From the IMG/VR virus record IMGVR_UViG_2711768070_000016: a stretch of 5,369 nucleotides of DNA. One strand, given 5' to 3'. Shown in pieces: positions 735-4,561 of this stretch. This DNA is from a virus. Its lineage: Duplodnaviria; Heunggongvirae; Uroviricota; Caudoviricetes. Made by a program: the position numbers and the translations under genes. Under the pieces are notes generated by a model. The model saw only the letters and a program-made list of their open reading frames with translations, searched no databases and was not told the DNA's origin. Within the stretch, counting starts at the first letter, position 1, and every line of letters starts with the position of its first letter.

Positions 735-1271
735 TCAAACAACCCACCAGTTTGCCTGATTGGATGCCAGCCTTGCAGTTTTTATGGAATTAATTATGCC
801 ATGCTCAAGAGCCTTGTTAGCATCCAAAATGGTCGAGTCTGCTATCAGGGATGCCCACCTAATATGGGTTCCGATGTCGATATTGAACGTCTCAACGAAG
901 CGATCAAGATCGTTATCGAGGCATTTCCCGTACTCTCTCAATCTGGCATGGTCGGCGGCTGGGGAGGCAAAGCACCATAATAGAGGATGTAACAGGAATC
1001 TTGATAATGGGTTTGCGAAACGTTCTGAGCCAGCCAGGAAAACGATATTAGCTATGGATTCAACATTGCTTATGTTGTGAGTTCTAACGGTAACAGGGAG
1101 TGACTTAAGAAAGTTATACGCAGTAAAGCCAGCGGCAGTTTCCCCTCCCTGACTTGATATATGGATATTTAATTCAGTTGCGCCTTGAGATAATGCGGTG
1201 AGACAGTGGTTCTGAAGTTGCCCAACAGTGGCAGTGTTAACGGGGCATAAGAAATGAATTGTGTGCAGCAT
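735..1271 (-). CDS. ClpP-fold (S14-like) serine peptidase, 178 aa, lacking the N-terminal axial-loop region of canonical ClpP
   Basis: Translation contains ..IHISSQGGETAAGFTAYNFL..NVESIANIVFLAGSERFANPLSRFLLHP.., which aligns by eye to E. coli ClpP INSPGG...GQAASMGAFLLTAG...RVMIHQP with Ser and His at the equivalent positions (tentatively Ser72, His95, Asp145). Start ATG at 1271-1269 overlaps the mnt-like stop (TAATG on the minus strand). Confidence 0.7.
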   Translation of the reverse strand: MLHTIHFLCPVNTATVGQLQNHCLTALSQGATELNIHISSQGGETAAGFTAYNFLKSLPVTVRTHNISNVESIANIVFLAGSERFANPLSRFLLHPLLWCFASPAADHARLREYGKCLDNDLDRFVETFNIDIGTHIRWASLIADSTILDANKALEHGIINSIKTARLASNQANWWVV

Positions 1272-1519
1272 TATTTTTCATCCTTACCATACATGGTCTT
1301 TAGCGTCTCAAGCAGCGCCTCTTTGAATTTGTCAGCTTCTTGCTGAGCAAATGACTCAACTGACTTTGGCGACCTATCTTCATCAATCGCGGCTTGCAAA
1401 ATCATGACGATCTCGGAGTTAACAGAGCGACCATTTTTTGATGCTCTGACAGCAAGAGCCTCGCGTAAAGATTCAGGGATTCTTACCGTAGTTGGAGAAA
1501 TTGACACACCCTTTGCCAT
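1271..1519 (-). CDS. mnt: Mnt-like ribbon-helix-helix repressor (82 aa)
   Basis: MAKGVSISPTTVRIPESLREALAVRASKNGRSVNSEIV...LKTMYGKDEK has the RHH N-terminus (beta-strand then ..NGRSxNSEI..) and the length and C-terminus resembling P22 Mnt as I remember it. Start chosen at ATG 1519 (preceded by AAGGTG) rather than the upstream ATG at 1561 in the ORF track. It is divergent from arc-like, as in immI. Confidence 0.75.
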   Translation of the reverse strand: MAKGVSISPTTVRIPESLREALAVRASKNGRSVNSEIVMILQAAIDEDRSPKSVESFAQQEADKFKEALLETLKTMYGKDEK

Positions 1520-1633
1520 ATCACACCTTTGGTATTCAATTTGATAGCAAAGTGTATGCAAAAAAATTTTGACTAGATATACTCACTTTGCTATCTTTTG
1601 TATTCGAAAAGAGTTGTTTGTATGGAGGGTAAC
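1520..1633. promoter_or_regulatory. Divergent mnt / arc-ant control region with candidate operators
   Basis: 114 bp AT-rich spacer between divergent RHH genes. Possible rightward sigma70 promoter: TTGACT 1569-1574, 17 bp spacer, TATCTT 1592-1597. GGAGG 1624-1628 precedes ATG 1634. I could not find a convincing leftward -35/-10 pair. Confidence 0.45.
1543..1595. promoter_or_regulatory. 12 bp perfect inverted repeat GATAGCAAAGTG (1543-1554) / CACTTTGCTATC (1584-1595), 29 bp spacer; candidate repressor-binding sites
   Basis: Verified base by base. The right arm overlaps the putative -10 of the rightward promoter. Confidence 0.5.
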
Positions 1634-1786
1634 ATGGAGAAAGAAATAAGTAAGATTTTGGTAAGGATGCCGCAGTCGTTAAAGGATGCTATAGGTAGCA
1701 GGGCAAAGGAAGAGTGCAGGTCGTTTAACTCAGAGGTTATCAAGCGCCTGATAGACAGCTTGAAGAGAGAGGGGGTAATGGTATGA
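1634..1786 (+). CDS. arc: Arc-like ribbon-helix-helix repressor (50 aa)
   Basis: [50 protein letters not shown] resembles P22 Arc (..NGRSVNSEIYQRVMESFKKEGRIGA) in length and motif. Strong RBS GGAGG sits 5 nt upstream of ATG 1634; the ORF-track start at 1598 is a TTG and looks like an over-extension. Confidence 0.7.
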   Translation: MEKEISKILVRMPQSLKDAIGSRAKEECRSFNSEVIKRLIDSLKREGVMV

Positions 1787-1986
1787 GTAAAGAATGTTGT
1801 TTCTGCGGCATTAGCGAATCAGACGCTGATCAAACATACATTTACTCTAAAGAAACAGGTCGGATGCTGTGTAGTGACTGCGTGTTGGACATCATAAGAT
1901 ACAAGCATCTTGGATGTTCTGCCAGCATTAGCAATATAGGTGAAGTATATGAAGGGAAAGATATAACTGATAGAGCAGAAAGTTGA
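1783..1986 (+). CDS. Small standalone ClpX-type C4 zinc-binding-domain (ZBD)-like protein (67 aa)
   Basis: CCFCG..(21 aa)..[11 protein letters not shown] aligns by eye to the ClpX N-terminal ZBD (CSFCGKS...ICDECVDLCNDIIRE): Cys5/6-x-Cys8 and Cys30-x2-Cys33. Start ATG 1783 overlaps the arc-like stop (ATGA); its stop TGA 1984-1986 lies upstream of ant. Confidence 0.6.
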
Positions 1987-2048
1987 AGCCCCAACTGCGG
2001 GAACAGTCAGGGCTTCGGTTGTCAGTAAATCCGTGGAGAAAAACCAAC

Positions 2049-2951
2049 ATGAATAGTATAGCAATTTTAGAAGCAGTGAACACCTCTTACGTACCATTCA
2101 ACGGTCAGCAAATTATCACCGCCATGGCTGCCGGAGTTGCATATGTTGCGATGAAGCCAATCGTTGAAAACCTCGGAATGAGCTGGGGTACTCAGCAACA
2201 AAAACTTATGAAACAACTAGATAAGTTCAACTGTATTCATATGAATATGGTTGCTGCTGATGGAAAGCTTCGTAAGCTACTCTGCCTTCCTTTGAAGAAG
2301 TTAAATGGATGGCTGTTCAGCATCAACCCCGAGAAAGTTCGTGCTGACATCCGCGATAAACTGATTCAGTACCAGGAAGAATGCTTTACTGTGCTGCATG
2401 ACTACTGGACAAAGGGAAAGGCAGAAAATGCACGTAAGAAAACATCTGTTGATGACAGGACTCCGCTTCGTGATGCTGTAAATATGCTGGTCAGCAAAAA
2501 GCATCTAATGTACCCAGAAGCTTATGCAATGATTCATCAGCGTTTCAATGTGGAAAGTATTGAAGAGCTTGATGCATCTCAGATACCGCAAGCCGTAGAG
2601 TACATCCACAGGGTAGTGCTTGAAGGTGAGTTCATTGGCAAACAAGAGAAGAAGCTCAACGGGCTTTCCGCAAAAGAAACAGACAGCCTTGTATGGCTGT
2701 GGGATTATGCCAACCGCTCACAGGCATTGTTCCGTGAGTTGTATCCCGCATTAAAACTGATTCAGTCTGGCTATTCCGGCACATGCTACGACTACGGTCA
2801 TGAGTTCTCGTATGTTATTGGAATGGCGAGAGACGTTTTAATTAATCACACACGAGATGTTGATATCAATGAGCCAGACGGACCAACGAACCTTCTGGCA
2901 TGGGAAAGGCTTAAGAACAAAGAATTGCCGCCTTCACTGCATCACTACTAA
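2049..2951 (+). CDS. ant: Phage antirepressor Ant (P22 Ant-like, about 300 aa)
   Basis: N-terminus [44 protein letters not shown]...[25 protein letters not shown] is the P22 antirepressor N-terminal domain as I remember it. Start chosen at ATG 2049 (GGAGA upstream) rather than the TTG at 1983. Stop TAA 2949-2951. Confidence 0.85.
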
Positions 2952-2992: not shown

Positions 2993-3008
2993 ATCAGGAG
3001 TTCTCATG
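2970..3008. repeat. Right boundary repeat (hairpin + T6 + AT + AGGAGT + nn + TCATG), ending in the K start codon
   Basis: Partner of 687-725; see the alignment described there. Confidence 0.7.
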
Positions 3009-3743
3009 CTCTATAGCAATATATTGGCACATGCCCGGCGGTGTGCGCCTGCGGAGTCGTGCGGCTTCGTGGTGAGAACGCCGGAGGGGGAGCGGTATAT
3101 CCCTTGTGTGAATATTTCCGCAGAGCCGGAGGCGTATTTTCGTATTGCGCCGGAAGACTGGCTGCGGGCAGAGATGCAGGGGGAGATTGTGGCGCTGGTC
3201 CACAGTCATCCCGGTGGTCTGCCCTGGCTGAGCGAGGCGGACCGGCGGCTGCAGATAAAGAGTGCCCTGCCCTGGTGGCTGGTCTGCCGGGGTGAAATTC
3301 ACCGGTTCCGCTGTGTGCCGCACCTGACCGGACGGCGCTTTGCGCACGGGGTGACGGACTGTTACACGCTGTTCCGGGATGCCTACCATCTGGCGGGAAT
3401 TGATATGCCGGATTTTCATCGCGGGGATGACTGGTGGCGCAACGGTCAGAACCTTTACCTGGACAATATGGCGGTCACCGGCTTTTACCGGGTGCCCCTG
3501 TCCTCTGCACAGGCGGGCGATATTCTGCTGTGCTGCTTTGGTGCTTCGGTACCGAACCATGCCGCCATATACTGCGGCAACGGTGAGCTGCTTCACCATC
3601 TGCCTGAACAACTGAGTAAACGGGAGAGGTATTCTGAAAAATGGCAACGACGAACGCATTCTGTCTGGCGTCACCGCCACTGGCACGCATCTGCCTTCAC
3701 GGGGATTTACAACGATTTGGCCGCCGCCTCAGCCTGTACGTGA
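3006..3743 (+). CDS. K: Tail assembly protein K (lambda gpK family; JAMM/MPN plus NlpC/P60 domains)
   Basis: ..HARRCAPAESCGFVV.. N-terminus, JAMM motif HSHPGGLPWLSEAD (H-x-H-x7-S-x2-D) and NlpC/P60-type Cys (GVTDCYTLF) and His (NHAAIYCG). Start at ATG 3006 with RBS AGGAG; the ORF-track start 2967 lies inside the terminator hairpin. Confidence 0.88.
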   Translation: MLYSNILAHARRCAPAESCGFVVRTPEGERYIPCVNISAEPEAYFRIAPEDWLRAEMQGEIVALVHSHPGGLPWLSEADRRLQIKSALPWWLVCRGEIHRFRCVPHLTGRRFAHGVTDCYTLFRDAYHLAGIDMPDFHRGDDWWRNGQNLYLDNMAVTGFYRVPLSSAQAGDILLCCFGASVPNHAAIYCGNGELLHHLPEQLSKRERYSEKWQRRTHSVWRHRHWHASAFTGIYNDLAAASACT

Positions 3744-4321
3744 ACACGGCAGCGGAAGCCATTCGCGCCCTGTCGATGCAGATGCCGGGCTTTCGCCGTC
3801 AGATGAACGAAGGGTGGTACCAGATACGTATTGCCGGTGAGGACACGGCACCGGAGGCGGTGTACGCCCGTCTTCACGAACAGCTGGGTGAGGGAACGGT
3901 CATCCACATTGTGCCGCGACTGGCCGGGGCCGGAAAGGGTGGACTGCAGATTGTGCTGGGGGCGGCAGCCATCGTGGGCTCTTTCTTCACTGCCGGAGGC
4001 TCGATGGCGTTATGGGGTACAGCCCTGAGTGCCGGTGGTTTTTCTGCCACCACGATGCTGTTTTCACTGGGTGCCAGTATGATTCTGGGCGGTGTGGCCC
4101 AGATGCTGGCCCCGAAGGCAAAAACACCGGATTACCGCGCAACGGATAACGGCAGACAGAACACGTATTTTTCGTCACTGGACAACATGATTGCCCAGGG
4201 TAACCCGATGCCGGTGCCTTACGGGGAAATGCTGGTTGGTTCACGACGGATATCCCAGGACATCAGCACCCGTGATGAAGGCGGGGGCGGAAAGGTCGTG
4301 GTTATCGGGCGGCAGGGGTAA
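3641..4321 (+). CDS. I: Tail assembly protein I (lambda gpI family)
   Basis: MATTNAFCLASPPLARICLHGDLQRFGRR...QIVLGAAAIVGSFFTAG...NTYFSSLDNMIAQGN matches lambda gpI as I remember it. It overlaps the 3' end of K by 103 nt in another frame. Stop TAA 4319-4321. Confidence 0.9.
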   Translation: MATTNAFCLASPPLARICLHGDLQRFGRRLSLYVNTAAEAIRALSMQMPGFRRQMNEGWYQIRIAGEDTAPEAVYARLHEQLGEGTVIHIVPRLAGAGKGGLQIVLGAAAIVGSFFTAGGSMALWGTALSAGGFSATTMLFSLGASMILGGVAQMLAPKAKTPDYRATDNGRQNTYFSSLDNMIAQGNPMPVPYGEMLVGSRRISQDISTRDEGGGGKVVVIGRQG

Positions 4322-4334
4322 AAAGAATAAAAAA

Positions 4335-4366
4335 TCCCGCAGTGCTCACGGACAGGAACTGCGGGA
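4335..4366 (-). terminator. 9 bp-stem hairpin (TCCCGCAGT / ACTGCGGGA, 14 nt loop) with the U-run on the minus strand
   Basis: Read directly. The plus strand has A-rich sequence 4321-4334 before the stem and no T-run after it, so it looks like a terminator only for leftward transcription. No convincing leftward gene precedes it. Confidence 0.3.
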
Positions 4367-4500
4367 GAGTTACGAAGATTAAGTGTAAGGAATTATTCTT
4401 ATGTCACGACAAAAAACATTAACGCAGAGAAATTATTAGCACCACAGTCAGTTTGTGAAAATGTGAAGATATTCAGAAGTTTTATTCAGTGATGATACAG

Positions 4501-4530
4501 GCATCCTCAGGGATGCCAGTTGTTTTTGTG
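4501..4530 (+). terminator. Hairpin GCATCC-TCAG-GGATGC followed by TTGTTTTTGTG; weak terminator-like element upstream of J
   Basis: Read directly: stem 4501-4506 / 4511-4516, T-rich tract 4519-4530. Confidence 0.3.
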
Positions 4531-4561
4531 CGTAACAGTTATCACAGTAAAGGGTGAGACA

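Follow-up and report, generated by a model that had tools for sequence, protein, structure and literature searches.

In a phage antirepressor cassette, the control region contains an inverted repeat whose two arms are best read as two operator sites for the cassette's own ribbon-helix-helix (RHH) repressors, part of a group of four or more related sites (B, C, D, and E), a reading drawn from comparative sequence evidence to which we assign a probability of about 0.75. The genetic switch is ordinary in kind, but its layout is unlike the textbook version found in P22. Arc and Mnt of P22 are textbook models of RHH DNA recognition, and to our knowledge operator layout has been studied in P22 only.

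The repeat was found in a stretch of DNA of 5,369 nucleotides, the whole of which is referred to here as the window. Its left arm, GATAGCAAAGTG (site C, 1543-1554), and its right arm, CACTTTGCTATC (site D, 1584-1595), are 12 nt long, 100% complementary, and 29 nt apart, with arm centers separated by 41 bp; the repeat cannot be extended outward (1542/1596, T/T) or inward (1555/1583, T/T). The spacer is A/T-rich (23 of 29 positions) and holds the hexamer TTGACT at 1569-1574. The arms, the A/T-rich spacer with its TTGACT, and the 41-bp distance between arm centers had been described in the first-pass annotation, and the repeat is real, with its coordinates reproduced. With the first T of TTGACT as reference, the core of the left arm, CAAAGTG, is centered 18 bp upstream, at 1551, and that of the right arm 18 bp downstream, at 1587. 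When the window was shuffled 1000 times with its dinucleotides preserved, 17 of the shuffles (1.7%) contained a perfect inverted repeat 12 bp or longer with a gap no greater than 60; for the AT-richer cassette, the corresponding count was 6 of 1000. Both arms fall inside the 114-bp gap (1520-1633) that separates the divergent Mnt-like and Arc-like genes, which makes a chance origin far less likely than these figures indicate.

The cassette and its genomic context

The window is a lambda-type tail block (L, 40-678; K, 3006-3743; I, 3641-4321; J from 4562) with a 2.3-kb cassette between L and K. The gene to the left of the control region (1271-1519, minus strand) encodes an Mnt-like RHH repressor of 82 aa with a Pfam Arc match, carries a CDS annotation in locus L001 (99.8% identical), and gives a product that is 36% identical to P22 Mnt over its full length (E 8e-14), with 1mnt as the top solved-structure match. 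The gene to the right (1634-1786, plus strand) encodes an Arc-like RHH repressor of 50 aa that also matches Pfam Arc, is 39% identical to P22 Arc, and has Arc as its top solved-structure matches. The naming of the two flanking genes as mnt-like and arc-like, first made from open reading frames, is thus borne out by Pfam, by identity to P22 Mnt, and by solved structures. Downstream of the Arc-like gene lies the regulated target, the antirepressor gene ant (2049-2951, plus strand; Pfam P22_AR_N and P22_AR_C), with a nucleotide identity of 84% to P22 ant and 94% to epsilon34 ant, so that the divergent mnt-like and arc-like genes and the ant gene behind arc have the arrangement of an immI module. 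The start of ant is spanned by the sar antisense RNA (1981-2048, minus strand; Rfam RF00262, 95.6 bits against a gathering score of 43). Close similarity to P22 is confined to ant and sar, and no BLAST alignment could be obtained between the control region and P22; sar is fully conserved although the arc and mnt genes and the operators are a diverged replacement set. Modules of this type were named "ant moron" (immI-type) in the epsilon34 genome paper (PMC2629481). By its gene content, sar, and promoter homology, we assign the cassette to this immI/ant-moron class.

A 99.8%-identical cassette is present in E. coli AR_0017 at the canonical immI position of a P22-like prophage, between the DNA-transfer genes and the tailspike, and prophages of O145/O157 EHEC have a version of the 611R6 type, lacking ClpP, at the L-K joint that the cassette occupies in the window. 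From such sequence comparisons, the entire immI cassette (680-2990 in the window; also L001, L085, and L288) is seen as a mobile module. Terminator-like hairpins flank the window cassette at 687-704 and 2969-2988, and the mnt gene of L288 is a mosaic with an N-terminal half of the L046 type and a C-terminal half of the window type, together with ClpP.

Two genes that are absent from P22 immI are attached to the repressor genes. One is a ClpP-like gene (735-1271, minus strand; Pfam CLP_protease, E 2e-11) whose start overlaps the stop of the Mnt-like gene (TAATG, 1273-1269). The other is a 67-aa zinc-finger ORF (1783-1986, plus strand; in RefSeq, related loci are annotated as ClpX C4-type zinc finger protein) whose start overlaps the stop of the Arc-like gene (ATGA, 1783-1786), and translational coupling looks likely in both cases. 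The presence of a protease-like protein and a ClpX-adaptor-like finger beside an antirepressor switch hints at a possible proteolytic control. An 85-aa ORF on the plus strand (723-980), antisense to the ClpP-like gene and without a Pfam match, is probably not a gene.

Outside the cassette, a 240-bp AT-rich non-coding gap (4322-4561) separates tail genes I and J; about 40 Stx-converting phages share it at 97% conservation, none with a feature annotated there. Its minus strand has a promoter-like sequence (TTCACA-16-AATAAT, 4459-4432) and a terminator-like hairpin with a T-run (4352-4336), which suggests a candidate minus-strand small RNA of about 90-100 nt. The predicted fold of this candidate has a z of -1.6, and the sole Rfam match in the gap, MicX, is far under threshold (23 bits against 75).

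Conservation and covariation of the two sites

Protein scans with the Mnt-like and the Arc-like sequences returned 160 viral loci, which were supplemented with one locus from Serratia and several records from phages and E. coli; the Serratia locus was the only one found when genome contigs were scanned with the Mnt-like protein. The divergent intergenic regions were extracted and anchored on TTGAC. From these, 25 distinct control regions not of the P22 type can be aligned free of gaps over positions -32 to +32, counted from the first T of TTGAC (1569 in the window), even through the homopolymer A/T tract, and the resulting alignment (A3) has 65 columns and covers Mnt-like proteins with identities down to about 54%. 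In all 25, one site core is located at -18, the position of the left arm, and another at +18, the position of the right arm. This core is CAC-N-GTG in most clades, the homologues of the left arm being sites centered on CACAGTG; the 611R6-type cores are GATATCACAGTG and CACGGTGATATG. A full palindrome is found in L046 and L060, CTACACAGTGTAG, and in L160, CTACATAATGTAG. These three loci carry a third site at +39, where the Serratia locus has a different palindrome. P22-type regions have neither the -18 site nor the 14-bp A/T tract.

Pairing between the two arms holds in 79% of the cells of A3, compared with 25-57% when the partner is slid by 1-3 columns, and changes on both sides are seen in 5 of the 12 arm pairs. 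None of 500 column shuffles reached the observed covariation score; as the sequences are related, representing about 12 independent lineages and not 25, and relatedness can inflate covariation counts, the shuffle figures overstate significance and the slid controls are the fairer comparison. The central column of the core is unpaired in 18 of the 25 sequences. The first-pass annotation had proposed that the arms are too far apart to be halves of one site and represent two operators. Their reading as two distinct operator-type RHH sites is upheld by the conservation of both positions in all clades other than P22 and by the co-variation between them, and further by the finding that a single position forms a complete 13-bp palindrome in L046, L060, and L160.

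Local two-fold symmetry within the individual sites is weaker overall (64%), being strong in some clades. Among the relatives, the inner three pairs (CAC/GTG) are matched in 72-100% of cases for the left site and in 68-100% for the right site, and the flanks are symmetric in some clades only. The window type retains just 2 of 7 local pairs per arm and so lacks the local two-fold symmetry of an Mnt-type site. This symmetry is nearly absent because the outer halves of the cores have changed in mirror fashion, to CAA-A-GTG on the left and CAC-T-TTG on the right. Such a loss of CAC-N-GTG symmetry in the arms is odd for a site bound by a symmetric dimer of dimers.

Variation within the window type is also informative. 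Of 34 near-identical cassettes, 8 have the 12/12 repeat and 26 differ by one mismatch, with GATATC in the left arm in 20, GATATC in the right arm in 4, and CGC in place of CAC in the right arm in 2. Each of the 26 variants is altered in a single arm and none is compensated in the other, and a stem of RNA or cruciform DNA is disfavored because these one-arm changes stay uncompensated. On this allelic evidence, the perfect 12/12 symmetry is taken to be incidental, one of four allelic states and not selected for. The pattern also suggests that arm position 5 (1547/1591) is tolerant or, possibly, that it tunes affinity.

Promoter elements around the arms

A promoter scan placed TTGACT-17 bp-TATCTT at 1569-1597, the sole promoter-like site on the plus strand between 600 and 3100. 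The hexamer TTGACT is the -35 element of a rightward Pant-like promoter, homologous to the annotated Pmnt/Pant stretch of epsilon34, and TTGAC is found in nearly all relatives. The -10 hexamer, TATCTT (1592-1597), is preceded by TG and forms an extended -10 element (TGcTATCTT, 1589-1597, plus strand), a TGn plus hexamer being found at the same position in the relatives. The right arm supplies the TG of this element and overlaps its hexamer by 4 bp, so that the overlap with the -10 of the arc-ant promoter recorded in the first-pass annotation stands. Over 1569-1597 the window is identical to the annotated Pmnt/Pant and arcO stretch of epsilon34/P22 at 21 of 29 positions, ungapped, and the right arm matches the promoter-proximal (right) half of P22/epsilon34 arcO at 9 of 12. 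Rightward transcription would start near 1604. Between the left arm and the -35 element lies an A/T tract, TATGCAAAAAAATT (1555-1568), which resembles an UP element, may act as one, and is invariant in length among the relatives.

The leftward mnt promoter is less clear, since no convincing candidate conserved across clades was located in the control region, and for this reason we only infer its control. Two candidates, TATCTA (1579-1574, homologous to P22) and CAAAAT (1571-1566), were rejected, as neither has a convincing -35 element or is conserved in all clades. The preferred candidate, held with low confidence, is an extended -10 element, TGcTATCAA, on the minus strand (1549-1541). It has no -35 element and is kept in the window, Serratia, 611R6, and L059 types, not in all clades. 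Searches of the intergenic region (1520-1633) found no LexA box (CTG...CAG) and no CRP site (TGTGA-N6-TCACA). In the Kapi1 transcriptome, which comes from a lysogen of a different immI variant, mnt expression was not detectable (PMC12922286).

Further copies of the motif

The count of just two sites in the first-pass annotation has to be revised upward. With at most one mismatch allowed, CTTTGNTAT matches seven times in the window, and five of these matches lie inside 1511-1603, compared with 3.9 expected over the whole 5.4 kb. The clustered copies are A (1511-1519, the weaker one), B (1527-1535), C (the left arm, inverted), D (the right arm), and E (1595-1603). Site B, CACACCTTTGGTAT (1522-1535, plus strand), repeats the arm motif in direct orientation and overlaps the Mnt-like gene's Shine-Dalgarno region. 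As its counterpart in the 611R6 type reads CACCGTGATA, site B co-varies with the arms. Site E, CTTTTGTATTC (1595-1611), lies within an imperfect palindrome, CTTTTGTATTCGAAAAG, which is centered at 1603 about the probable rightward start, and the 611R6 type has the palindrome TTGTGATTCACAA in this place; we take site E for a putative operator. The weak copy A, CACACCCTTTGCCAT (1505-1519, plus strand), overlaps the start codon of the Mnt-like gene and may simply reflect the coding sequence.

The clustering is repeated elsewhere in the family. Four copies of CACNGTGATA are present in the 611R6 type, against 0.6 expected, and five copies of CACNGTGTAG in L046, against 0.39 expected, all of them intergenic. 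Additional copies of the clade's own motif are found in every clade; some of them are direct, and all are confined to the control region. From the 611R6 type to the window type, sites B, C, and D all undergo the same GTG-to-TTG change. The repressors' own promoter region thus holds short subsites repeated in inverted or direct orientation, as is typical of RHH operators. Because the sites are partly direct, are confined to the control region, and change in concert, they are better explained as operators than as hairpin stems.

A separate inverted repeat of 15 nt, 80% complementary, joins 1505-1519, at the Mnt-like start codon, to 1544-1558 in the region of the left arm. If the leftward transcript began upstream of 1558, a 15-bp stem would be possible with the Shine-Dalgarno sequence in its loop and the AUG in the stem; this repeat may instead be a by-product of the repeated operator motif.

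Proposed mode of action

Each arm would act as a separate site. A repressor on the right arm would, judging from its position, cover the spacer and the extended -10 element of the arc-ant promoter and block RNA polymerase. A repressor on the left arm could, more doubtfully, cover the -10 of the leftward mnt promoter (the candidate TGcTATCAA) or, alternatively and with similar reserve, block the UP-element contacts of the rightward promoter. Sites B and E would lie near the two presumed start sites. Were the Mnt-like tetramer the binder, it would repress ant and regulate its own gene.

It can be speculated, more tentatively, that the layout is a multi-operator array fixed throughout the clade, in which one type of RHH repressor occupies -18 and +18 together with a site at about +39 or -41 and builds a higher-order complex with 36-bp spacing that would silence ant and autoregulate mnt, the repressors of L046/L288 sharing their specificity; we consider this extended version rather improbable as a whole.

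Comparison with known RHH operators

Like P22 immI, the cassette has divergent mnt-like and arc-like RHH genes, a downstream ant, sar, a homologous Pant core, and an operator that overlaps the promoter spacer and the -10 element. P22 has one 21-bp Oarc between -35 and -10, one 17-bp Omnt palindrome at the start site, and overlapping promoters, whereas in the window there are an additional A/T tract of 14 bp, a site upstream at -18, and at least 3-4 occurrences of the same motif. P22 Arc represses both immI promoters, and the tetramers of P22 Mnt and Arc occupy neighboring half-sites separated by about one turn. In P22-type regions, Oarc is again located between -35 and -10 and Omnt (TCCACGGTGGA core) near +43. 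In the window, a P22-type Oarc of 21 bp with symmetric TAGA/TCTA boxes is absent between -35 and -10, where 3 of 10 mirror pairs match, and no CAC-N-GTG palindrome of the Omnt type is present near +43 from TTGAC.

The resemblance to Omnt is instead one of form. The palindromes of L046, L060 (CTACACAGTGTAG), and L160 (CTACATAATGTAG) have the same form as P22 Omnt (GGTCCAC-G-GTGGACC; GTCCACGGTGGAC), and the sites of the relatives, such as CTACAC-A-GTGTAG in L046 and L060, are likewise centered on CAC-N-GTG with variable flanks and a free central base. In natural variants of P22-type Omnt, the central base also varies (CCAC-G/C/A-GTGG). Unlike Omnt, the window arms lack local symmetry while keeping symmetry from arm to arm, and the sites are at -18 and +18 from the -35 element and not at the start site.

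Multi-repeat RHH operators (pSM19035 omega heptads, CopG, ParG, and the met-boxes of MetJ) also consist of short direct or inverted subsites, here spread over about 80 bp; those operators, however, are contiguous tandem arrays, whereas the sites in the window are 10-36 bp apart and interleaved with promoter elements. The 611R6-type subsite (ATCAC/GTGAT) presumably resembles the omega heptad WATCACW, which we note as a lead only. The operator of NikR, another RHH protein, has two inverted half-sites with a long spacer (GTATGA-N16-TCATAC). In NikR, however, a central metal-binding tetramer core separates the two RHH dimers, and none is evident in the 82-aa Mnt-like protein; the spacer in the window, moreover, is 29 bp long and contains a -35 element.

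Which repressor binds

For the identity of the binder, we give the Mnt-like protein about an even chance and consider the Arc-like protein clearly the weaker candidate; shared or overlapping use of the sites by both proteins is possible and takes up the rest. The Mnt-like protein is favored because the sites share the form of P22 Omnt. Natural variants lean the same way. The locus L117 has window-type arms and an Arc-like beta-strand that, through a K7R change, equals that of the 611R6 type, and the Mnt-like N-termini of the window and 611R6 types differ (GVSISPTTVRIP vs KVRDIAPYSVRMP); as the DNA-facing residues of the Arc-like proteins are alike in L117 and 611R6 while the sites and the Mnt-like N-termini differ, the comparison leans to the Mnt-like protein. 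Conversely, L032 has 611R6-type arms and a 611R6-like Mnt N-terminus, yet its Arc-like strand is very different (VDCIVRMS). The arms thus follow the Mnt-like N-terminus in L032 and L117. They do not in L059, and the assignment is not a clean one because the core of L059 (CAAATTG / CATAGTT) differs despite a 611R6-like N-terminus.

In the L046/L288 clade, the proteins at the Mnt and Arc positions share a near-identical DNA-reading strand (MKGARDISPLGIRIP and MKVRDIAPLGIRIP; the L046-clade beta-strands are RDISPLGIRIP and RDIAPLGIRIP), which suggests, by analogy with CI and Cro, that two repressors there may share one operator specificity. An exact-pattern scan of viral contigs with TGATAKCAAAGTGTA yielded no new swap loci, that is, window-type arms next to a foreign Arc-like or Mnt-like gene; the pattern is too short, and 51 of 61 distinct contexts are due to chance, the 10 with a nearby TTGAC being 9 known window-type loci and 1 unrelated one. 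L044, L045, L289, and L290 have other Mnt types and an unrelated GGTACGCAT motif and are uninformative on the binder of the arms.

Alternative explanations

The most serious competitor, which we regard as improbable though by no means negligible, holds that both arms are Arc-like operators, the right arm being a diverged promoter-proximal half of arcO and the left arm a second copy that shuts a leftward promoter set apart from Pant by the extra A/T tract. Position points to the Arc-like protein because the right arm matches half of P22 arcO (9/12), within a promoter stretch that is itself homologous (21/29); the control of both promoters by Arc in P22 agrees with such a scheme, and the almost identical RHH strands of the L046 clade make shared sites plausible. 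Against it, three sites differ by GTG to TTG between L117 and 611R6 although their Arc-like strands are the same, the arms of L032 are kept while its Arc-like strand is drastically changed, and no symmetric TAGA-type boxes are present at the center equivalent to arcO (3/10 mirror pairs). It is less probable still that one tetramer, or two interacting ones, bridge the arms by looping or wrapping the 29-bp spacer with its -35 element, as the first-pass annotation had considered. The spacing between the sites is invariant in 25 of 25 aligned regions, even across a homopolymer tract, the A7T4 tract in the spacer could bend the DNA, and arm centers 41 bp apart are separated by about 3.9 turns. The conserved cores, however, are 36 bp or about 3.4 turns apart and would lie on nearly opposite faces, promoter or UP-element geometry explains the invariant length equally well, L160 keeps the sites without an A tract, each position is a self-sufficient palindrome in relatives, and the half-sites bound by the P22 tetramers lie side by side, about a turn apart.

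Two further explanations dispense with repressors, and we consider both very unlikely. The repeat could form an RNA hairpin, either in a late tail-operon transcript that reads through the cassette or in the mnt leader. The predicted folding energy is -16.1 kcal/mol (z -3.2), and -26.3 kcal/mol (z -4.1) on the minus strand, and compensatory changes are present among the relatives. The middle of the stem is nevertheless unpaired in 18 of 25 relatives, 26 of 34 cassettes have an uncompensated stem mismatch (T-C or G-A, or, in the two CGC loci, a G-U wobble), the motif recurs in direct orientation, the arms are in fixed register with the -35 and -10 elements, and Rfam has no match at the repeat. 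A hairpin as the main function, including one formed in the leader by the left-arm region and the mnt start codon, was rejected, as the stem is not maintained in relatives. Slightly less probable again is a symmetry due to chance or to history alone, for example as a by-product of back-to-back -10-like elements; each arm does contain an extended -10-like string of the TGnTATC type, and the perfect form is a minority allele. The repeat is rare, however, in shuffles of the whole window (1.7%) and would be much rarer in a 114-bp region, and comparison across clades shows conserved positions, co-varying arms, and a clustering of the motif in the control region.

Implications for immI-type cassettes

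This cassette variant alone is present in 162 of 5426 complete E. coli genomes, and Shiga-toxin-type prophages carry related variants between their tail genes L and K. This widespread family of antirepressor cassettes would have a multi-site operator arrangement unlike that of P22, with recognition sequences specific to each clade. Since antirepressors can induce resident prophages in trans, these sites and their repressors may be relevant to prophage induction and cross-talk. The findings extend a known mechanism and are unsurprising in kind; the -18/+18 layout and the series of specificities should nevertheless be useful to the specialist. We contend that the co-varying protein N-termini and operators could serve as a natural series for studying how RHH specificity evolves.
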